Part shown: positions 2,861-57,913 of the stretch, piece after piece | Layout: every line of letters starts with the position of its first letter | Position numbering within the stretch: the stretch's first letter is position 1 | NCBI GenBank assembly: GCA_965368975.1 | Contig: CBDUPA010000005.1 | Span: 64,001-128,000 of the forward strand | Direction of reading: 5' to 3' | Length of the DNA stretch: 64,000 bases | Source: an uncultured bacterium | GTDB taxonomy: Bacteria > Acidobacteriota > Thermoanaerobaculia > Multivoradales > JAHZIX01 | Made by a program: the position numbers and the translations under genes | Notes under the pieces: model-generated | Database searches by the model: none | What the model saw: the letters and a program-made list of their open reading frames with translations, nothing else | Told to the model about the DNA's origin: nothing

Positions 2861-2925
2861 AGGCCTGGCGGCGGCTGCAGCGTGCTTGGATGCGTTGCAA
2901 GGGCAATCGGTTAAACTACCCAATT

Positions 2926-5412
2926 ATGCGCCAAGACTTTCGCCTGGCCTGGCGTGCACTGCGCCGCCGGCCACTCCTGACGCTGATCGTGGGCTCGACG
3001 CTGGCCCTGGGAATCGGTGTGACCGGCGCCGTCTTCGGACTGGTGGATGTCTTGTTGCTGCGGCCGGTGCCGGGAGTGACAGCTCCCGAGGAACTGGTGT
3101 CCGTGCACGGTACCCGCAGAGGCAGTCCCGAGGCGCTGATACAGCTGACCTACGCCGATTTCCGAGACTACGACCGGGGCACCACGGAAGTACTCAGTGG
3201 GCTGGCTGCCTACGCGGAAGCCAGCTTCGCTCTCAGTGCCGGCGAGCCGAGTGTGCGGGTTCCGGGAGTGGCGGTCAGCACCGACTACTTCCAGGTCTTG
3301 GGCGTTCAACCCCACTTGGGGAGCTTCGCGGCCTTTCGCGACCAGCCGACGCCAGCGGTCGTCGTGCTCGGCTACGACTACTGGCATGGGCATCTGGACG
3401 CCGATCCGGACATCCTTGGGCGCCGGATCGATCTCAACGGGGAACCGCTGACGGTCGTTGCGGTGGCTCCGCGTGGTTTCCGTGGTGTGGACCTGGTGTT
3501 CGAGGCGTCGGTCTGGGTGCCGCTTGGCCAGTTCAAGCAACTGGCCCGCGGAATCTTCGCCCAGTTGGGAGGCGTCGAGAACCGGCAACAGGCTTGGCTG
3601 CGCGCCGTCGGCCGCGTTGCGCCAGGGCAGCAGTTGGAGCAGGCGCAGCTCGTCTTCGACGCGCTCTCCGGCAGCCTCGCGGAGGCTTACCCCGAAGTTG
3701 CCAAGGGGCGCGGCGCCAAGGTGCTGCCCCTGGCCCAGGTGGCTTTCGGGCGTGGCATGCGTGGCCACGTGGTGCGATATGCAGGGCTCTTGCTAGCGGT
3801 CACTGGCTTGCTCTTGCTGGTCACCTGCCTCAACGTCGCCGGCCTGCTGGTGGCGCACGGCCTGACGCGGGATCGCGAGATGGCGGTGCGGCGCAGCGTC
3901 GGCGCCGGTACCTGGAACCTCGTCCGGTTGCTGCTGTTCGAGAATCTTGGGCTGGCTCTGCTCGGCGGTCTCGGTGGCCTAGGGTTGGCCGCGGGACTCT
4001 TGCCTCTGCTGTCGCGCTTGCACTTGCCGCTCAACCTCGACGCCGCTGCCGTCACGCCGAATCTCGACCTGCGCTTCGCAGCGCTGGTCTTTGCTCTGGC
4101 AGTAGCCAGTGGGCTGATCTTCGGCGTGCTGGCGGCACTGCGCACCGCCCGTGTCGATCTACGCACGATGCTGCAGGGGGGCTACAGTCGTTCGGCGCGT
4201 TGGACGCTCTTCGGCATGCGCGACCTGCTCGTGACCGGTCAGATCGCGTTGTGCGGCGTGGTGCTGGTGGCCGCAGTTCTACTACTGTCGACCTGGCGCA
4301 ATCTCGACGCTGTCGAGACCGGTTACGAAGATCGCAACCTGCTGCTGGCCAGCCTCGACCCGGAGGAGAGCGGCTACCCGGCGTGGAAGTTGCCCCAGTT
4401 CTACGACAAGCTGCGGCAGCGCCTGGAACGCTTGCCCGGAGTCGATCGCGTGTCGCAGGCCAACGCGCTTCCCATGCTCGGCGCCGGCATGGCGGTCGAG
4501 TTGACCGTCGAGCCCTACGACTACGTACCTCCAGAGGAGGCCGCCGCCTGGCCTTCTGCCAAGCACGCCATGGTCGGTCCGGGTTTCTTCGCCACCGCCG
4601 GGGTCAAGTTGCTGCACGGCCGGACCTTCCAGGAGATGGATGGTCCGGACGCACCGGCGGTTGTGTTGGTCAATGAGACATTGGCGCGCGAGTTCTGGCC
4701 CGATCAGCCGGCGATCGGCCGGCAGCTCGAGCTGTATGACACACCGGAGCCGTTCGAAGTCATTGGTGTGGTCGCCGACTGTAAGTACGCCAGTCTGCGA
4801 GAATCGCCGCGTCCAACTTTGTTCCTGGCTTTCTCGCAGTGGTCCAAGAGCAAGTTGGGACCGATGCTGATGTCGCCGATGACCGTCATGGTGCACGCGG
4901 ACGGCGCCCCGGGAGCCCTGGCGGCCGACCTGCGCAACACGGTCGAGGCGCTCGACTCGATGCTCCCGGTCTTCGACCTGCGCACCCTCGACGAGACCCG
5001 TTCTGCCGCCATGCGCTCCGAGCGTCAGCTGGCGGCGCTGTTCGGTTCTTTCGCCATCTTCACGCTGTGCTTGGCGATGTTCGGTCTGTTTGGTGTCCTG
5101 ACCCACGCCGTGCTGTGCCGGCGCCGTGAGATGGGTATCCGCCTGGCCTTGGGTGCCCGTCCCCGTGATCTTCGACGATTGGTGGTACGGCGGGCGCTGG
5201 TCCTGTGTGTGCCCGGGATTCTCGGTGGTCTGGCGGCGGCGCTGGCCCTGTCGAGTTTCCTTTCCGGCCACCTCTTCGGTCTCGGTGCCGCCGATCCGGC
5301 CACCTACGTCAAGGTCGCACTGACATTGATCGGCTTTGCCCTCCTGGCTAGCCACCTACCGGCGCGCCGCGCGGGCCGCCTGGCACCGGAGTCGTTGCTC
5401 AAGGAGGCGTGA
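2926..5412 (+). CDS. ADOP-type duplicated ABC permease (2x MacB_PCD/FtsX)
   Basis: MRQDFRLAWRALRRRP start, CLNVAGLL...REMAVR, VTGQIAL, REMGIRLALGA, PARRA motifs. Confidence 0.9.
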   Translation: MRQDFRLAWRALRRRPLLTLIVGSTLALGIGVTGAVFGLVDVLLLRPVPGVTAPEELVSVHGTRRGSPEALIQLTYADFRDYDRGTTEVLSGLAAYAEASFALSAGEPSVRVPGVAVSTDYFQVLGVQPHLGSFAAFRDQPTPAVVVLGYDYWHGHLDADPDILGRRIDLNGEPLTVVAVAPRGFRGVDLVFEASVWVPLGQFKQLARGIFAQLGGVENRQQAWLRAVGRVAPGQQLEQAQLVFDALSGSLAEAYPEVAKGRGAKVLPLAQVAFGRGMRGHVVRYAGLLLAVTGLLLLVTCLNVAGLLVAHGLTRDREMAVRRSVGAGTWNLVRLLLFENLGLALLGGLGGLGLAAGLLPLLSRLHLPLNLDAAAVTPNLDLRFAALVFALAVASGLIFGVLAALRTARVDLRTMLQGGYSRSARWTLFGMRDLLVTGQIALCGVVLVAAVLLLSTWRNLDAVETGYEDRNLLLASLDPEESGYPAWKLPQFYDKLRQRLERLPGVDRVSQANALPMLGAGMAVELTVEPYDYVPPEEAAAWPSAKHAMVGPGFFATAGVKLLHGRTFQEMDGPDAPAVVLVNETLAREFWPDQPAIGRQLELYDTPEPFEVIGVVADCKYASLRESPRPTLFLAFSQWSKSKLGPMLMSPMTVMVHADGAPGALAADLRNTVEALDSMLPVFDLRTLDETRSAAMRSERQLAALFGSFAIFTLCLAMFGLFGVLTHAVLCRRREMGIRLALGARPRDLRRLVVRRALVLCVPGILGGLAAALALSSFLSGHLFGLGAADPATYVKVALTLIGFALLASHLPARRAGRLAPESLLKEA

Positions 5413-5442
5413 GCCCGAGACGCAGCTTGGCCGAAGACAGAA

Positions 5443-5474
5443 CGACCCCCGCGACCGTCAAGGCACGGGGGTCG
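5443..5474. terminator. GC-rich hairpin downstream of the ADOP gene
   Basis: CGACCCCCG...CGGGGGTCG inverted repeat between convergent genes. Confidence 0.5.
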
Positions 5475-5487
5475 GCTAGATCCGGCT

Positions 5488-5509
5488 GGGCTCTTCAGCT
5501 GAAGAGCCC
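5488..5509. terminator. Perfect 22-bp palindrome just downstream of the 53-aa peptide gene
   Basis: GGGCTCTTCAGCTGAAGAGCCC, 2 nt beyond the TGA of 5512..5673 (-). Confidence 0.6.
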
Positions 5510-5511
5510 GC

Positions 5512-5673
5512 TCAGAACGGGTCGCAGACGTCGCAGCGGCTGCCGGCCGAGTCCGGGTCGAGGAAGGTTTCCGGCAGATCCGGCTCTTTGCCACCGGCCA
5601 GGTGCAGGTTGCTGTCCGCCAGACGGCGCAGGGTCTCGCGGTTCAGGGTCAGTTTCTTGCTGCTCTTCTTCAT
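5512..5673 (-). CDS. Putative RiPP precursor B, 53 aa: MKKSSKKLTLNRETLRRLADSNLHLAGG/KEPDLPETFLDPDSAGSRCDVCDPF (not in ORF track)
   Basis: Translated by hand; GAGGAGG RBS upstream of ATG; KKLxLxRETLRxL leader-type motif, GG cleavage site, acidic core ending CxxC. Confidence 0.85.
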   Translation of the reverse strand: MKKSSKKLTLNRETLRRLADSNLHLAGGKEPDLPETFLDPDSAGSRCDVCDPF

Positions 5674-5747
5674 GGACTAGGTCCTCCTCGATCAAAGTGA
5701 GTCGTCAACATCGGTGCTTCTGCTCGAACTGATTTCGAGCGGTATCC

Positions 5748-5777
5748 ATTGTCCGAGGCCGGGGAGCCCCTTGTCAA
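5748..5777 (-). promoter_or_regulatory. Sigma70-type promoter for precursor B
   Basis: Minus strand TTGACA (5777-5772), 18 nt spacer, GACAAT (5753-5748); a second TTGACA at 5791-5786. Confidence 0.6.
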
Positions 5778-5826
5778 TTCATGGCTGTCAATGCAGGCTC
5801 TCCCTGCAGGGCGGTGGAATCAGGCT

Positions 5827-6969
5827 TCAGGCAGCCGGGGCGTCCTCCGAGGCTTCTACGAACGTCCCTTCCGGGGGCACACGGTGCGTCTGCCTGGCGG
5901 CTTCGAGGCGTTTGAGGGCCCGCGGTCGCAGGTCAGCGTAGCGCAGGCTACTGCGGCTCTCGTTCCAGTCGAAGTCCCCTTGGGCGGCGGAGCGGCCCTG
6001 GATCAAGAAGTCGGTGAAGGCGTCGAGCAGCGGGTAGCCGGTGGCGTGTTCGAGGAACAAGAATTGCCCCATCTGGTTGACCTCCAGGAAGAGGTGCCGG
6101 CCGTCCGGGGTGACGATCAGGTCGAAGCAACCGAAGACCAGGCCGAGGTGGTCGAGCAGGCGGCTGCAAGCGTCGACTACGGCGGTGGGCAGTTCGATCG
6201 GCTCCATGTGCAGCTCGTGGTACGACTTGCGCCAGTCGAGTCGGCCGGTGCGTGTCTGTTGTGAGCAGACCTTGAAAGCGAAGGGACGCCGGCCCATGAG
6301 CGTCAGGCGGATCTCGTAGGCCTTGGGCACCAGGGCCTGGTAGATGCCCGGAGCGGCGCGCAGGAGCTCGTCGCTCACCAGGTCGTCCTCGGTGACGCGG
6401 CTGGTGTAGGGCATCCAATAGGTCTCGTCGTCCTTCCAGGGTAGCCCCTTGAGTGGCTTGTAGACAGCACTACCGCCCTGGTCCCGTAGGAAGGCGCGGA
6501 TTTCGTCCGGATCGTTCGAGTACAGCGTTTCGGGCACTTCGAGACCGACGCGCGAGGCGTGGTACGACTGCAAGATCTTGTTGCCATGGCGGACGGCGCT
6601 CTGCGGGTTGACCCAGAAGGCCGACGCTTCGAGCAGTTGCATCAGCCCCTGGCGCGATGTGCGCACGCTCCACTCAGCGAAGTCTCGGTCTGCCGGGTGC
6701 AGGGTGAGGGGGTCGAGGTAGTGCGTCGGACGCCGGTTCCACACCACGTCGAAGTGGGGGTCCTGGAGGTCGAAGTCGGGACCGCGCAGGCGAATCGAGG
6801 TCGACACCCGACCCTCGGAGGCGGCGAAGCGCATGCTCTCGCCTGCGTTCATGGGGAAGTCGGAGGTGTGCCACAACACGGGAGACTGTCCTTTGGCTTC
6901 CAGCGCGGTCTGGACCGCGTAGGCGTGCAAGTCATCCGGCTGCGACAGGATCAGAATCGAAGTCGACAT
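5827..6969 (-). CDS. ATP-grasp RiPP maturase, MvdC/MvdD (graspetide synthetase) family
   Basis: ILILSQPDDLHA start, VWNRRP, WVNP..NKILQ, VYKPL, PGIYQALVPKAYEIR, LDWR, LGLVFGCFDLI, FLEVNQMGQF. Confidence 0.92.
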   Translation of the reverse strand: MSTSILILSQPDDLHAYAVQTALEAKGQSPVLWHTSDFPMNAGESMRFAASEGRVSTSIRLRGPDFDLQDPHFDVVWNRRPTHYLDPLTLHPADRDFAEWSVRTSRQGLMQLLEASAFWVNPQSAVRHGNKILQSYHASRVGLEVPETLYSNDPDEIRAFLRDQGGSAVYKPLKGLPWKDDETYWMPYTSRVTEDDLVSDELLRAAPGIYQALVPKAYEIRLTLMGRRPFAFKVCSQQTRTGRLDWRKSYHELHMEPIELPTAVVDACSRLLDHLGLVFGCFDLIVTPDGRHLFLEVNQMGQFLFLEHATGYPLLDAFTDFLIQGRSAAQGDFDWNESRSSLRYADLRPRALKRLEAARQTHRVPPEGTFVEASEDAPAA

Positions 6970-7018
6970 AGCAGGTCATCCCTAGAGCAAGAGGTGAAAC
7001 AAGGAGAGAGAGGGAAAA

Positions 7019-7054
7019 CGGGGCGGTGCCCCTTGTGACAGGAACACCGCCCCG
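7019..7054 (-). terminator. Stem-loop between precursor A and the ATP-grasp gene
   Basis: CGGGGCGGTG...CACCGCCCCG 10-bp stem, followed on the minus strand by TTTTCCCTCTCTCT. Confidence 0.7.
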
Positions 7055-7079
7055 GTATGTCGTACGGAGTGTGGAAGGT

Positions 7080-7262
7080 TTAGTCGCCGTCTGGCCCGAG
7101 GTTGGTGACGTCAGTGCCGCCACCCGTGATCTCAGGAGTTGTGGTCGGATCGGAATCATCGCGACCACCACCGCCGAGGATATTGCGAAGGTCCTCGGCA
7201 AGTACGCGGGCCAGAACGCGACCGGAGCGGGGATGCTGCAATTGAGCAACGTTCTTACGCAT
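7080..7262 (-). CDS. Putative graspetide precursor A, 60 aa: MRKNVAQLQHPRSGRVLARVLAEDLRNILGG/GGRDDSDPTTTPEITGGGTDVTNLGPDGD
   Basis: AAGGAG RBS before ATG 7262; helical leader, GG site, Thr/Asp-rich core; directly upstream of ATP-grasp gene. Confidence 0.87.
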   Translation of the reverse strand: MRKNVAQLQHPRSGRVLARVLAEDLRNILGGGGRDDSDPTTTPEITGGGTDVTNLGPDGD

Positions 7263-7470
7263 GGCTGCTCCTTTCAAGGTGAGTGAAGGACGCGGGCGAA
7301 CCGCGATTCCTCCGTATTCAAAGCCACTCCCGTGGGCGCGTCCGTTATTCGGACTCGTCTATACCTACGTAGAACAAGCCTCTGGGGTATACCGTGGATT
7401 CCTGGTTTTACAGTTTTTTGCAACTCGCGGTTTTCGGAGGCAGGCATGCGGGTGCGCTAAGATCGCGGCA

Positions 7471-8760
<1,290 letters not shown>

Positions 8761-8762
8761 CG

Positions 8763-9362
8763 ATGAGCGACGGCACCGATGGCATCACCGAGATCCTTCG
8801 AGAGTGGTGCGGCGGGACGCCGGAAGCGCTCGAGAAGCTCATGCCGCTGGTCTTCGGGGAGCTACGCAAGCTGGCGCGCTCACACTTCCGGCGCGAACCG
8901 TCCGGCCATACGCTACAGCCGACGGCCCTGGTCAACGAGGTCTATCTGCGCCTAGAGCGGCAGATGCACGTGCAACTGATCAACCGCACGCAGTTCTTCG
9001 CCTTCGCCTCGCGCCTGATGCGCCGCATCCTAGTCGACCACCACCGAACACGGCAGGCGGAGAAGCGCGGGAACGGGCAAGTCCTGGTGACTCTCGACGA
9101 GGCTCTGCGCGGGGGCCGCGCCGCCGCCCGCGCGAGGACGATCGAGCGAGTCGATATCCTGGCGCTGGATGAGGCCTTGGAGTTGCTCAAGGAGCTGGAT
9201 CCACGGCAGTGCCGAGTCGTCGAGCTGCGTTACTTCGGGGGCTTGACGATTCCCGAGACAGCACAGGTGCTGGGCATTTCGCCGGCCACTGTCAAGCGCG
9301 AGTGGGCCGTTGCCAAGGCGTGGCTGCAGTATCGACTCCGTTCGCCGGGGGTGTCCGTGTGA
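8763..9362 (+). CDS. ECF sigma factor, TIGR02999-type (kinase-associated)
   Basis: LMPLVFGELRKLA, HTLQPTALVNEVYLRL, VELRYFGGL, TVKREWAVAKAWL. Confidence 0.93.
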   Translation: MSDGTDGITEILREWCGGTPEALEKLMPLVFGELRKLARSHFRREPSGHTLQPTALVNEVYLRLERQMHVQLINRTQFFAFASRLMRRILVDHHRTRQAEKRGNGQVLVTLDEALRGGRAAARARTIERVDILALDEALELLKELDPRQCRVVELRYFGGLTIPETAQVLGISPATVKREWAVAKAWLQYRLRSPGVSV

Positions 9363-11653
9363 CGCGCTGGGAACGTCTGAAGCAGGTTCTGGGTGCGGTG
9401 CTCGAGCTGCCGGCCGACGAGCGGCGCGCTTTCCTCGACGCTCACTGCAATGCTGAGCTGCGGCACGAGGTCGAAGCGATTCTCGATGCTCACCAGGACG
9501 AGGGCTTTCTGGAACAGCCGGTGATCGGCGATGACAGCCTGCTGCCGGCCGAGCGTGTCGGGCCGTACCGACTGCTGGGGCGTTTGGGTTCCGGCGGCAT
9601 GGGAGATGTCTTCTTGGCCGAGCAGGAAGAGCCCATCCGGCGCCGAGTGGCACTCAAGCTGATGCGTCCCGGTGCCTTCGGCGGAGCCGCCGCCGCGCGC
9701 TTCGAAATCGAGCGCCAAGCGCTGGCACGCATGCAGCATCCCAATATCGCGCGGGTGTTTGACGCTGGCGCCGTCGAGATCGACTCGATCTTGGGTGGCC
9801 CAACCGACCGCCGTTCCTTCTTCGTCATGGAGTTGATCAGTGGCCGTGCGATCACCCGCTATTGTGACGACGAAGCGCTCAGCCTGGAGCAGCGCCTGGA
9901 GCTCTTCGTCCAGGTTTGCCGGGGCGTCCAGCACGCCCACCAGAGAGGGATCATTCACCGCGACCTCAAGCCGTCGAACGTTCTGGTCCTTGAGGAAGAC
10001 GGCCGTCCGGTACCCAAGATCATTGACTTCGGCGTCGCCAAGGCCGTCGAGACCGTGGAGGCCGGAGCCTCCGCGCAGGGCCTCACTGCTGCCGGAGCCC
10101 TGACCGATAGCGGGGCTCTGACCGGCGCGGGGCAGTGGATCGGCACACCCGAGTATATGAGTCCGGAGCAAGCCGACGCCGGCGGCAGTGCGGTGGATAC
10201 GCGCGCTGACGTCTATGCGCTGGGCGCGTTGCTCTACGAGTTGCTGACTGGGTGGCAGCCCTTCGATCCCGAAGAGCTGCGCGGTGGCGATCTGCGGCAT
10301 CTTCGTGAAGTGCTGCGCACGCATGAGCCTGTGGCGCCGAGCCGGCGCGTCGATCCCGGCAGCGAGCGCGCGCGGCGGTTGCGCGGTGATCTCGACGCCA
10401 TTGTGTCAAAGGCTTTGGAGAAAGAGCCGGAGCGCCGCTTCGCCTCAGTGGTCGAGCTGGCGGCCGACATCCAGCGCCACCTGCATCACGAAGTGGTCAG
10501 CGCCGTACAACCGAGCCGCGGGTACCGGCTGAGCAAGTTCGTGCGTCGGCACAGGACCGGTGTGGCGACGGCGGTGGCAGTGGTGCTAGCTCTTGGGTTC
10601 GGGCTGGCAGCAGCGATGGTCGGCATGGTACGAACGCGAGATGCAGAAGCTGAGGCGCTGGTTCAAGCTGCGCTGGCAGAAGAGAAGGCGGCAACGGCCG
10701 AGCAGGTCACGCTCTTTCTTTTCGACTTGTTCGAAGCCGCCAATCCGTCGCGGGCACCCCGGCCGGAACTCACCTTGCGCGAGGTTCTGGACCGCGGAGC
10801 AGAGCGTGTGCGGGTGAAGTTGGCCGATCAGCCGGAAGCGCGCGGGCAGTTGCTGTTCACCATTGGCCGTTCTTACAAGGAGCTGGGTCTGTTCGATCAG
10901 GCGCGCGAGATGCTCGAAGAGTCTGTGGCGGTTCGGCGTGGTTGTTTCGGCGACGATCACCTGATGGTTGCCGAGAGCCTGCATGTTCTGAGTGCCGTGT
11001 ACATCGACCTGGCGCTCTTCGAGACTGCCCGCTCGACAGCGCGTGAGGCGTTGGAGATCCGCAGGCGTCACCTCGGCTCAGAGCATCTCCATATCGCTGG
11101 CACCCTGAACAACCTGGCGGTGATCCACAAGCGCCTGGGAGATCTCACCGAAGCGCGGCAAGACCTTGAACGCGCACTGACGATCTACGAAAGCCAGGGT
11201 GCCTCGGCGGCGCAGCGCGCCCAGGCGCTTGACAATCTCGGTCTCTTGCTGGCTGAGTCAGGGCAGCCGGCCCTGGCACGCCCTCATTTGCAGCGCGCTC
11301 TGGCCCTGCTTGAAGCCGAGTTCGGAGTCGACAGTGGCAGACTGTCCGGAACGCTCAACAATCTGGCACTGGTCGCGGCGGAGCTGGGTGACCATGCTGC
11401 CGCTCGGGACGAGTGGCGGCGGGTGCTCGACATCGACCGTCGAACCTACGGCGACGAGCATCCCTATATCGCCTTCGGCCACTTCAATCTGGGCAAGTTG
11501 GCCGAGGAAATGGGCCAGTGCGAGATCGCCGAGGAGCACCTACGTGCCGCCGTCGAGATTCTGCGTCAGCGCCTCCCTTCGGAGCACCCGAGGCTGCGTG
11601 AGGCCACAGACTACCTCGCATCCCTCTCAGCAGGCTGTGAGGCCGGATTTTGA
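9359..11653 (+). CDS. Ser/Thr protein kinase with TM segment and TPR repeats
   Basis: GTGA overlap with sigma gene; LGSGGMGDV, VALK, HRDLKPSN, DFG, GTPEYMSPEQ; TM helix then TLNNLA-type TPRs. Confidence 0.93.
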   Translation: MTRWERLKQVLGAVLELPADERRAFLDAHCNAELRHEVEAILDAHQDEGFLEQPVIGDDSLLPAERVGPYRLLGRLGSGGMGDVFLAEQEEPIRRRVALKLMRPGAFGGAAAARFEIERQALARMQHPNIARVFDAGAVEIDSILGGPTDRRSFFVMELISGRAITRYCDDEALSLEQRLELFVQVCRGVQHAHQRGIIHRDLKPSNVLVLEEDGRPVPKIIDFGVAKAVETVEAGASAQGLTAAGALTDSGALTGAGQWIGTPEYMSPEQADAGGSAVDTRADVYALGALLYELLTGWQPFDPEELRGGDLRHLREVLRTHEPVAPSRRVDPGSERARRLRGDLDAIVSKALEKEPERRFASVVELAADIQRHLHHEVVSAVQPSRGYRLSKFVRRHRTGVATAVAVVLALGFGLAAAMVGMVRTRDAEAEALVQAALAEEKAATAEQVTLFLFDLFEAANPSRAPRPELTLREVLDRGAERVRVKLADQPEARGQLLFTIGRSYKELGLFDQAREMLEESVAVRRGCFGDDHLMVAESLHVLSAVYIDLALFETARSTAREALEIRRRHLGSEHLHIAGTLNNLAVIHKRLGDLTEARQDLERALTIYESQGASAAQRAQALDNLGLLLAESGQPALARPHLQRALALLEAEFGVDSGRLSGTLNNLALVAAELGDHAAARDEWRRVLDIDRRTYGDEHPYIAFGHFNLGKLAEEMGQCEIAEEHLRAAVEILRQRLPSEHPRLREATDYLASLSAGCEAGF

Positions 11654-55552: not shown

Positions 55553-55897
55553 CTAGTCGGACACGACCGGTTCTGCTTCACTTTGCCTGCCCGTGGCTGT
55601 GCGGAGCTGCTGCTCGAGCGACCACAGCGAGGAGAACCGGCCCGACCCCTCGTAGATCCGTACTTTGTGCCGCTGGCCGTTGACTGGTGGTAACTCCAAA
55701 ATCTCGATCGCCGCCGCCAGACCGGCGACGCCGGCACCCAGGATGTGGAATACCTGCGGCTCTTCCAGGGCTCGTCCGAGGTCCTTCAGCTTCTTGCGAC
55801 GTTCCGTGATCGGGGTCCAGTACTGCTGCCAATCATTCGATGCACTCCTTGGTGATCCTCCTTCACCGTGAAGAGTGCTGCGATGGTCCGGGATCTC
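55553..55897 (-). pseudogene. Remnant of an FAD-dependent oxidoreductase N-terminus (Rossmann motif), no start codon upstream of the motif
   Basis: Hand translation gives ...QVFHILGAGVAGLAAAIEILELPPVNGQRHKVRIYEGSGRF...; same frame as upstream ORF after its TGA. Confidence 0.65.
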
Positions 55898-57913
55898 TCA
55901 GTTCGAGTGCAGCACGATCGAAATCGGAGCCTCCAGCGAGTCTAGAAGTTGGGCAGCCGGCCGGTAACCTAGAGCTTCGACGCGGAGTCCGTAGCCCCTG
56001 TAGGTGCCAGCCGGGATCGGCGCGCTGGCGGCACCCGCTGAGTTGGACTGTAATGTCCGCTCCGTAGTCAGGCTCTCGAGCCCGGCCCCTTCCAGCCGGA
56101 TCGACACTGTGGCCCGAGGAATCGGATTACCTGCGGTATCCAGGACCTGCACGTGGAGCCAGGCTGTTTCCTGCAAAGGCAACCGGATCCCGGTCACTTC
56201 TGCTTCCTCGGCGAGGACCACGCGTACCTCTGCACTGATGCGGGGCTTCGAGGGGTCGCCAGCGGCGGCACGGAGTGCCCAGGTGCCAGCGGGCAGATTG
56301 CGCAGTTGGAAAGTACCGTCGTCGGCACTACTGCCGGTACCCGCCCCTTCGTCGACCGGATTGCCATCGGTGGAGGTGTTTTCGCCCGCCAATGAGTGGT
56401 GTCCCGGCGCCTCCAGCCGTCGTGCTATCACCGTCGCGCCGGCTACGGGGCGGGAATCCGTGTCGAGGACCACACCGCGAAGGCTGCCGTCAGGCAAGTG
56501 GAGTTCCAGTTCCCGATCCGGTGAACTCAACTTGAGGGTCTCGTCGAGCAGCAAGGGAGTCACCTGTTCTGTCGTGCGGAACCAGGCTCGATAGTCACCG
56601 GTTTCGGGTACGCCGATCACGAAGGCACCCTCTCTATTCGAGTAGGTCGACGGTAGCCGTTCTCCGTTCAGAATTTCCGGGTCGATTGGTTGTAGTTGCA
56701 AGAAAGCGCGCACGGGTTCGCCGCCGCGCAGTACACGTCCGTGGAACATGTGGCCGGCGGAGGGTAGCCAGTAGATCTCAGCGCTGTCAGGAGCCACCGA
56801 AACAGCATCCCGGGCGACGGTGAACACGGTTCCCTGGGGATGGTGGCACTGGACCGAGAATCGCCATTGTCCCGGTGCCAGAGCCAGAGGACCGACGGTG
56901 TCGTCCTGCTGGAAGCGCGCTTCCACAAGAGTTCGATTCAGCCATCCGCAGCCCGGGTCCAGGTGACCGACGAGGCGGAACTCACAGTCGGCGAGGTGTG
57001 CATCGGCACTCTCAAGACCGATGGAAATCTTGGCGGCCTGCGGCAAGATGATGTCTTCGAGCCGCACTTCCGTCTCTGGAGTCAACTCGAACGGACCGTA
57101 GAACACCGGCGCCAACTCTGGAGCTGCTGATCTGGCCCGTAGGCGCAAGATACCGGGAGGTAAGCCCGCCAGGCGTACCCATCCGTTAGCGTCGGTACGG
57201 CCCGGCCAGCCGACCTCGCGTTGGTCGGCACCGTAGGTTTGTTCCGCGACTTGGCGGAAGTCTTCTGCCGGAAAGACCTCCAGGATCGCCCCTGATATCG
57301 GCGCTCCGTCATCCCCAACTACCCGCGCCACCAGCGCTGCCCCTGTTTGCAGGTCGATCTTACCTAGGTTGAGCACGGTCTCTGAGGTGAGTTGCTGTTG
57401 CGGCCAGGTGACCGGTGTCGCGGGGCCGATCCTCAGTGTGACGTCCCAGCAGCCCAGCGGAACGGTAGCTGTCAGGCGCCGTCCGTTGATCAAAGCCGGT
57501 ACGACACCGAAACGAAATGTCTCACCGCAGCGGACGAGGTGAACCTTACCGGTAGCTAGTCCGATCGCTTCCGTCAGGCTGCCAGTGACTTCGGTAGCCG
57601 GTTCTAGCACGATCGGGAGAGGTCCCGCCGCTGGGCATCCCGGAATCGCCATAGGTCGACTGATGGCGCTGTCCGTCCGCAGGACGATCACCGAGTTCTG
57701 CAGGCAGCCTCGAGGTGATCCAATGAGCCCCGGAGTCTGTGTGTCTCGGAGCTGCAGTTTCTGCTGTGTAGCTTCTGTGATTTGCCAAGCCTCTACCTGC
57801 TCAGCTGTCAATGACTGCTGGAGTCTAAGCAGCAGATCTGGCGCATCCGATGGCTGTGCGGCCACAGGCAGTTGCAAGCTGCAGAGCAGAAAGAATGCCA
57901 GCCAGAAGCCCAT
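55898..57913 (-). CDS. Secreted protein with carboxypeptidase-regulatory-like (beta-sandwich) repeats
   Basis: Signal peptide; repeated GxVxDxxGxP(I/V)xGA, TDANG, F.L..LP.G.W motifs. Confidence 0.78.
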   Translation of the reverse strand: MGFWLAFFLLCSLQLPVAAQPSDAPDLLLRLQQSLTAEQVEAWQITEATQQKLQLRDTQTPGLIGSPRGCLQNSVIVLRTDSAISRPMAIPGCPAAGPLPIVLEPATEVTGSLTEAIGLATGKVHLVRCGETFRFGVVPALINGRRLTATVPLGCWDVTLRIGPATPVTWPQQQLTSETVLNLGKIDLQTGAALVARVVGDDGAPISGAILEVFPAEDFRQVAEQTYGADQREVGWPGRTDANGWVRLAGLPPGILRLRARSAAPELAPVFYGPFELTPETEVRLEDIILPQAAKISIGLESADAHLADCEFRLVGHLDPGCGWLNRTLVEARFQQDDTVGPLALAPGQWRFSVQCHHPQGTVFTVARDAVSVAPDSAEIYWLPSAGHMFHGRVLRGGEPVRAFLQLQPIDPEILNGERLPSTYSNREGAFVIGVPETGDYRAWFRTTEQVTPLLLDETLKLSSPDRELELHLPDGSLRGVVLDTDSRPVAGATVIARRLEAPGHHSLAGENTSTDGNPVDEGAGTGSSADDGTFQLRNLPAGTWALRAAAGDPSKPRISAEVRVVLAEEAEVTGIRLPLQETAWLHVQVLDTAGNPIPRATVSIRLEGAGLESLTTERTLQSNSAGAASAPIPAGTYRGYGLRVEALGYRPAAQLLDSLEAPISIVLHSN

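Follow-up and report, generated by a model that had tools for sequence, protein, structure and literature searches.

Can a single ATP-grasp ligase serve two precursor peptides that bear no visible resemblance to each other? The question is raised by a locus on the minus strand of a 64,000-nucleotide stretch of DNA from an uncultured bacterium placed in the Thermoanaerobaculia, Acidobacteriota (GenBank assembly GCA_965368975.1, contig CBDUPA010000005.1, positions 64,001 to 128,000; this whole stretch is the window, and positions given without a contig or locus name are counted from its first letter). In the order of transcription, the locus (5488-7275) comprises a short peptide A, a hairpin, an ATP-grasp ligase, a second short peptide B and a palindrome. 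A preliminary description had taken it for a graspetide-type cluster for peptides that are made on the ribosome and modified after translation (RiPPs), belonging to an uncharacterised group and possibly with one enzyme acting on two classes of substrate. All of these elements are present where they had been placed, most of them beyond chance expectation, and the graspetide nature of the locus is borne out by a maturase-type ligase and a conserved precursor next to it. As for the rest, the sequence comparisons presented here favour, with moderate confidence, two separate things lying side by side: a group 8 graspetide operon formed by A and the ligase, and an adjoining, unrelated precursor of lanthipeptide type, B. 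The family memberships, the synteny of A and the ligase, the lack of conservation of B and the existence of a genome-wide B family next to Lan genes were computed here; what is said below on the chemistry and number of the rings, on attenuation, on the protease that cuts the leader and on the modifier of B is inferred.

The ligase gene (5827-6969, minus strand) encodes a protein of 380 amino acids that both family models and solved structures identify as a graspetide synthetase. Among the NCBIfam models, it matches TIGR04187 with an E value of 1e-65, MvdC (TIGR04185) with 1.6e-48, MvdD (TIGR04184) with 3.8e-48 and the grasp-with-spasm model with 2e-22, while the RimK, LysX and glutathione synthase models range from 1e-4 to 3e-2 (RimK 1.8e-4, glutathione synthase 1.8e-2); there is also a weak match to PF21068. 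The nearest solved structure is that of the microviridin synthetase MdnC (PDB 5ig9, E 8e-39 over ligase residues 12-328), next comes MdnB (5ig8), and AMdnB, CdnC, 9bou and PsnB follow. By model scores and nearest structures alike, the protein thus groups with the MvdC, MvdD and SAV_5884 maturases and not with RimK or the glutathione synthetases. With MdnC and MdnB it has in common the fold family and a full-length alignment (residues 12-328), and the logic proposed below for the window, in which a leader helix activates the enzyme before omega-ester rings are formed, is that of these enzymes (mechanism in Makarova et al. 2022, PMC8939145). The likeness has limits, however. Microviridins are made by a pair of enzymes, one forming esters and the other amides, whereas the window has a single ligase gene; the microviridin leader PFFARFL and core TxKYPSD are found in neither of the window's peptides; and the conserved positions of peptide A include no Lys donor.

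Homologues of the ligase are numerous (632 at E <= 1e-3 in a large protein collection), the best of them, 50-57% identical, coming from Archangium, Hyalangium, Vitiosangium, Thermoanaerobaculia, Holophagales and one Planctomycetota genome. The five genomes of the same family that were searched yielded no orthologue with more than 35% identity, and matches at E <= 1e-40 occur in only 7 of 38 good genomes, the window's own included, so that the gene is patchily distributed.

Peptide A (coding sequence 7083-7262, stop codon 7080-7082, minus strand) has 60 amino acids. Its leader contains a helix, RVLARVLAEDL, and then GG/GGGG; three Thr clusters and, at the C-terminus, D-V-T-N...D-G-D characterise the core. 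The strong ribosome-binding sites noticed earlier in front of both peptides are indeed there, AAGGAG lying 5 nt ahead of the ATG of A and GAGGAGGA 8 nt ahead of that of B, and it is equally correct that both leaders end in GG and that both cores are acidic with Thr/Ser. What sets A apart is the company it keeps in other genomes. For the comparison, 79 related loci were fetched around relatives of the ligase (numbered with the prefix L below), and five from the window's own genome were added for the phmmer set of 84. Searching the small open reading frames of these 84 loci with A gave, besides A itself, 46 matches at E <= 0.03, nearly all of them on the strand of the ligase and with their end no more than about 100 bp upstream of it. 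With a hidden Markov model (HMM) of the A family, such a peptide was found in 62 of the 79 related loci, and inspection of the other 17 by eye added nine in which a peptide with a related R-I-L-G-R-R-L-A-R-E-L..GG leader lies either upstream or downstream of the ligase. The conserved adjacent peptides that a graspetide assignment had been expected to bring to light when short frames beside the homologues were collected are therefore there. In one locus where the HMM found no A-type peptide, a short frame (L037:804-965, plus strand) shares its ending, ..S-G-D-N-D-G-P-H-V-P-P-P-I, with the precursors of sister loci, a hint of a precursor that is frameshifted or mis-assembled.

The invariant part of the A family is its leader, (G)RVLARVLAE(D/E)L followed by about five residues and GG, and the cores fall into several subfamilies. 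In the subfamily of A itself (28 distinct peptides in the core alignment), a Thr pair, a further Thr, D-I-T-N and a C-terminal D-x-D are kept, giving three possible donors and three acceptors. Leader type and ligase phylogeny go together. In a quick maximum-likelihood tree of 82 ligases, which includes three long and unreliable rows (L084, L057 and L009, probably products of automatic frame extraction), the window's enzyme falls in a clade of 53 rows (Shimodaira-Hasegawa-like approximate likelihood ratio test, SH-aLRT, 100), 45 of them labelled with RVLARxLA leaders, and is sister to Archangiaceae enzymes; leader type changes three times on the tree, compared with 17.4 times in shuffles, and none of 500 shuffles had as few changes. 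A short precursor adjacent to the ligase, with a conserved leader and a core that offers Thr donors and Asp acceptors, is what a graspetide cluster should contain, and A is, on these comparisons, the predicted cognate precursor of the ligase.

To which kind of graspetide does this pair belong? Graspetide groups are numbered after Lee et al. 2020 and Ramesh et al. 2021 in a scheme extended by Carter et al. 2026 (PMC13097080), whose supplementary table is cited here for the entries it contains, any counts from it being lower bounds. Among its group 8 rows are a Thermoanaerobaculia peptide with the leader of A and a D-I-T-N..D-G-D core, and peptides identical letter for letter to the precursors of two of the related loci, L057 and L007. 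The ligases of these loci match the window's with E values of 3e-95 (L057) and 1e-130 (L007), far beyond the threshold of the Carter network (alignment score 70, PMC13097080), and the window's ligase lies inside the tree clade that contains L007; for L057, a long branch makes the position unreliable. In Makarova et al. 2022 (PMC8939145), the group 8 of Lee et al. 2020 appears as cluster75 (gr_08), with the leader consensus R-V..L-A-Y..A-R.L-S.E-E-L..V-S-G-G and the core consensus T..T-G....D...D...D. The latter fits the Thr and three Asp of A, with a spacing that varies among subfamilies, and the group 8 leader helix, R-x-L-x-R-x-L-A-x-E-L and then GG, is recognizable in A by comparison both with this consensus and with the Carter rows. 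The same publication gives a 'new' Xanthomonas cluster, cluster208, with a G-R-V-L-A-R-V-L leader.

The group has also been approached experimentally. Ayikpoe et al. 2022 (PMC9576775) expressed a group 8 cluster of Legionella pneumophila that consists of two precursors, Gra-7A and Gra-7B, and one ligase; each peptide lost three waters, the double-glycine protease LahT150 allowed the changes in one of them to be placed in the core, and ring topology is described there as unsolved. Since near-identical relatives of A are listed in group 8 and Gra-7 has been expressed, the group is catalogued and partly characterised, and the earlier idea of an uncharacterised group has to be given up: A and the ligase are in all likelihood, as judged from their sequences, an ordinary member of group 8. 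They resemble the rest of it in having an MvdC/D-type ligase of about 370-380 amino acids, an adjacent short precursor with the R-x-L-x-R-x-L-A-x-E-L helix and a double glycine, and Thr donors in the core along with three Asp acceptors at its C-terminus; in the group at large there are one or two precursors per ligase, and a C39-type exporter is often encoded elsewhere. They differ from the Legionella members, whose leaders carry an S-x-E-E-L extension, by the shorter RVLARVLAEDL and the D-I-T-N..D-G-D core of a subfamily from Acidobacteriota and Myxococcota, for which no product was found in the parts of the group 8 literature covered. They also stand apart in transport. Co-occurrence with NHLM/PCAT transporters is described as high in group 8 (Carter et al. 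2026, PMC13097080), whereas the window's locus has no such gene: as the preliminary description had it, there is no C39 exporter at the locus, nor a C39 peptidase anywhere on its contig, the genome's three C39 peptidase matches being confined to contigs C8 and C13. According to Makarova et al. 2022 (PMC8939145), C39 peptidases are typically not encoded in ATP-grasp loci.

A scenario for the maturation of A can be outlined by analogy with these systems. Once A is translated, its RVLARVLAEDL helix would dock on the ligase and activate it; with ATP, the ligase would phosphorylate the side-chain carboxylates of the C-terminal Asp residues, and omega-ester rings would be closed with the hydroxyls of the conserved Thr residues, probably three of them as in Gra-7A/B. 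The double-glycine leader would then be cut, probably by one of the three ABC exporters with a C39 peptidase encoded elsewhere in the genome. The supply of precursor and enzyme may be tuned by the element between the two genes, a terminator-like hairpin (7019-7054, minus strand) of 15 pairs, 11 of them GC, with the T-run TTTTCCCTCT as its tail. It folds with a free energy (dG) of -32.7 kcal/mol and a z score of -5.26, and none of 200 shuffles folds equally well. Most transcripts would stop here, past A and ahead of the ligase gene, so that the hairpin is a probable attenuator setting the ratio of precursor to enzyme.

If A is accounted for, what is B? Peptide B (5512-5673 including the stop, minus strand; 53 amino acids) lies downstream of the ligase on the same strand, after a gap of 154 bp, and by its sequence features it is a real gene. 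Between the ligase stop and its start there is a sigma-70-like promoter (5748-5777, minus strand; TTGACA, 18 nt, GACAAT), identified by consensus match only, which is the single promoter-like site in 5300-7600, with 0.2 expected from shuffles. In the gap that separates the convergent genes, directly past the stop of B, a perfect palindrome (5488-5509; dG -23.8, z -3.84, no T-run) is a likely terminator for B and possibly also for the ADOP gene on the opposite strand; a second GC-rich hairpin in the same gap (5443-5474, minus strand; dG -26.2, z -2.5) is weak.

The first 25 residues of B match NF038153 (lant_leader_L1a), the model of class I lanthipeptide leaders, with 24.4 bits against a cut-off of 22, and its acidic core has one Thr, two Ser and two Cys in a C-x-x-C arrangement, so that the Ser/Thr and Cys of a lanthipeptide are there as far as composition goes. 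When B was used to query the window's own genome, its leader turned up at 20 places, and an HMM built from these 20 found 48 distinct frames at E <= 0.01 in 7.1 Mb, all with a K-K-L-x-L-x-R-E-T-L-x-x-L....GG leader and hypervariable cores, of which 47, that of B included, contain Cys and most are Cys-rich. Of 23 members scanned with NF038153, 13 match at E <= 0.01 and six reach the cut-off. Examples are C1:252986-253276, C26:11841-12149, C10:200822-201124 and C11:197981-199391, the last with four frames in tandem. Four of the 48 frames lie within 600 bp of a LanC gene (on contigs C1 and C13), two of these four on C13, between a complete LanB and two LanC genes (enzyme genes at C13:45177-51790). 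Another 42 are near none of LanB, LanC, C39 and ATP-grasp genes, and a Pfam scan of 81 open reading frames around eight clusters of the family found unrelated neighbours in seven. For this family, an unrelated neighbour is therefore normal. B shares with class I lanthipeptide precursors a leader above the NF038153 cut-off, a double-glycine end, Ser/Thr followed by Cys in the core and paralogues beside LanB and LanC genes in the same genome; it departs from them in lacking an adjacent LanB, LanC or exporter, in an unusually acidic core with two Cys and in having a graspetide synthetase for a neighbour. Literature searches found nothing useful on class I lanthipeptides in Acidobacteria.

The arrangement as a whole recalls the prochlorosins, cyanobacterial peptides of class II (LanM) in which one enzyme serves many dispersed precursors that share a conserved leader and have hypervariable cores. 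Here too, 48 dispersed peptides with one leader and hypervariable cores face a handful of Lan enzyme genes; the enzymes to which they are linked, however, are of class I (LanB/LanC), and the host is not a cyanobacterium but related, by its closest hits, to Acidobacteriota. In the favoured reading, B would be transcribed from its own promoter as an independent gene and would most likely be dehydrated and cyclised in trans by the genome's LanB and LanC, not by the neighbouring ligase, and exported via a C39 exporter.

How strongly, then, is B separated from the ligase? In contrast to A, it is not conserved beside related ligases. A phmmer search with B gave no convincing relative in the related loci, and an HMM of its leader found seven frames in 5 of the 79, each of the five also having a precursor of group 8 type. 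Two of these loci, L068 and L069, are from Thermoanaerobaculia and have orthologous peptides with B-type leaders upstream of group 8 ligases (L068:2357-2506, L069:944-1210), with a short, Thr-rich, acid-containing core with a single Cys, and a cognate T-W-T-L-T-D-P-P-D-G-P-Y precursor is present as well; L068 contains three B-type frames in 7 kb, a local island beside the ligase. The earlier statement that the two leaders share no visible similarity was a fair one: aligned as profiles (hhalign), A-type and B-type leaders show no detectable relationship (probability only 17.7%), even if the double glycine at the end of each is in register. Further clues came from sequencing runs, of which only small shares were matched and two were compared; their contigs are uninformative on strand, starts and ends. 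A DNA contig about 91% identical to the window is collinear with it from beyond 7400 through A and the ligase and departs at 5797, 30 nt past the ligase stop. A contig of 203 nt from a metatranscriptome library is identical to 5527-5729, that is B and 56 nt upstream; because DNA can occur in such libraries, it is a weak hint of expression, and the fact that A and the ligase have no such RNA cover says nothing about theirs.

These results leave little room for one enzyme serving two substrate classes, a notion that is not supported given the NF038153 leader of B, the dispersed family of 48 to which it belongs, its own promoter-like site and its lack of conservation beside related ligases and, over the 151 bases covered, in the 91%-identical contig. 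The idea nevertheless deserves to be weighed, because several facts count against the separation of B from the ligase, or against parts of the group 8 and lanthipeptide assignments. A ligase flanked by two precursors recurs in group 8, and B sits in exactly the second-precursor slot after the ligase that is filled in L025, L028, L041, L058 and in a cluster on contig C18 of the same genome; Gra-7 also has two precursors (PMC9576775). Its core is the most acidic of the family (7 Asp/Glu in 26 residues) and among the 10 least Cys-rich of 48, with Thr/Ser present, and no other family member lies near a ligase except one (C18:53976, at 1.7 kb) that is Cys-poor too. A B-type peptide occurs within 2 kb at two of the genome's four graspetide ligase loci, whereas random placement of 48 peptides in 7.1 Mb would give about 3% per locus (our own arithmetic, done post hoc). 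Carter et al. 2026 (PMC13097080) enter, in their RODEO table, at least one peptide with a B-type leader as a predicted group 8 precursor, beside the cognate one. Only 151 bases of the 91%-identical contig remain after its break, and a diverged B might follow further on. With none of the NCBIfam graspetide models does the ligase itself reach the curated cut-off, which makes it a divergent subfamily, and there is no LanB, LanC or C39 gene on the contig of B (C5). On account of the slot, the acidic and Cys-poor core and the two ligase loci out of four, we retain as improbable, but worth keeping in view, the reading that the ligase acts on both peptides, through macrolactonisation that is promiscuous towards leaders or in a graspetide-lanthipeptide hybrid with its acidic core bridged by esters and its C-x-x-C end by a thioether or disulfide. 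In its broader form, B would be a true second substrate in a precursor-ligase-precursor layout, with a leader of lanthipeptide type and, in one variant, both ester and thioether rings; this we consider quite unlikely, and the former wording of it a shade more so. Against it stand the ligase phylogeny, which follows the group 8 leader type, the leader profiles, which are not detectably related, the rarity of B-type peptides at related loci, where they are never the sole peptide, the promoter-like site of B, the loss of collinearity at B in the 91%-identical contig, and a family linked to Lan genes and not to ATP-grasp genes. Literature searches for a graspetide-lanthipeptide hybrid in Acidobacteria found nothing.

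B could also be independent of the ligase without being a lanthipeptide, as a secreted bacteriocin or signal that is unmodified or carries a C-x-x-C disulfide, its leader being a tag for C39 ABC export and cleavage. The 42 family members near no LanB, LanC, C39 or ATP-grasp gene, the seven inspected clusters out of eight in which no RiPP enzyme was seen, the double-glycine site together with three C39 transporters in the genome, and a core with only two Cys would all agree with this. The match of the leader to a curated class I lanthipeptide model would not, nor would the family members between LanB and LanC on C13 and beside LanC on C1 and C13, nor the retention of Ser/Thr upstream of Cys, as lanthionine rings need, and we regard such a product as unlikely, though not negligibly so. 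That B is a decaying or non-functional copy of its dispersed family, without a product, seems very improbable: as an orphan copy, it has fewer Cys than most paralogues, but its frame is intact, it has a strong ribosome-binding site, a promoter-like site and a palindrome after it, its leader has the third-best HMM score in the genome (partly circular, B being in the model) and independently exceeds the NF038153 cut-off, and the identical RNA-library contig covers it, a weak hint given that DNA may be present in the library. All this considered, B is most likely, on the sequence evidence, a member of a genome-wide family of lanthipeptide type and not a second substrate of the ligase.

The genes around the locus were also considered as parts of it. 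The flanking transporters seen earlier are both confirmed, a duplicated permease of the ADOP family on one side (2890-5412, plus strand; TIGR03434, 704 bits) and, by family scan, an AmpG-like transporter of the major facilitator superfamily (MFS) on the other (about 7261-8760, plus strand), and both were rejected as cluster members. The MFS protein has matches in none of 92 related loci and the ADOP permease in nine, which is about the chance level for ADOP paralogues, abundant as they are (the background is an estimate), so that the permease is not counted as part of the cluster. Past the MFS gene, 8439-11653 (plus strand) holds what appear, judging by the translations, to be a sigma factor of the extracytoplasmic function (ECF) type and an 814-amino-acid Ser/Thr kinase with TPR repeats.

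The same genome has further loci of graspetide type. On contig C18 (C18:55288-57247, locus L002), a second cluster similar to group 8 has a 392-amino-acid ligase (55782-57002), 41% identical to the window's, between two related precursors of 60 and 62 amino acids whose leaders read R-I-L-x-R-x-L-A-x-E-L-S-x-E-E-L..GG and whose cores are nearly the same; 1.7 kb upstream, there is a B-type peptide. A tandem pair of graspetide-type ATP-grasp proteins, 33-36% identical to the window's ligase, is encoded at C7:133397-135357, and a weaker match of this type at C13:115882-116472 lies about 6 kb from the C39 peptidase match at C13:122306.

What emerges is the picture of a RiPP-rich genome in which the apparent surprise of one ligase with two classes of precursor most likely reflects a neighbour drawn from a large, dispersed family of lanthipeptide type. 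This carries a warning for genome mining: where dozens of leader-bearing peptides are scattered over a genome, a short open reading frame beside a RiPP enzyme need not be its substrate, and RODEO-type tools may list such neighbours as precursors (PMC13097080). Should the ligase turn out to act on both peptides after all, a group 8 synthetase would have recruited a precursor with a lanthipeptide leader into its second-precursor slot. In either case, the locus adds one member to a catalogued group, and its subfamily, with the RVLARVLAEDL leader and the D-I-T-N..D-G-D core, occurs widely among Archangiaceae and uncultured Acidobacteriota and would be a reasonable small target for determining the structure of a group 8 graspetide.

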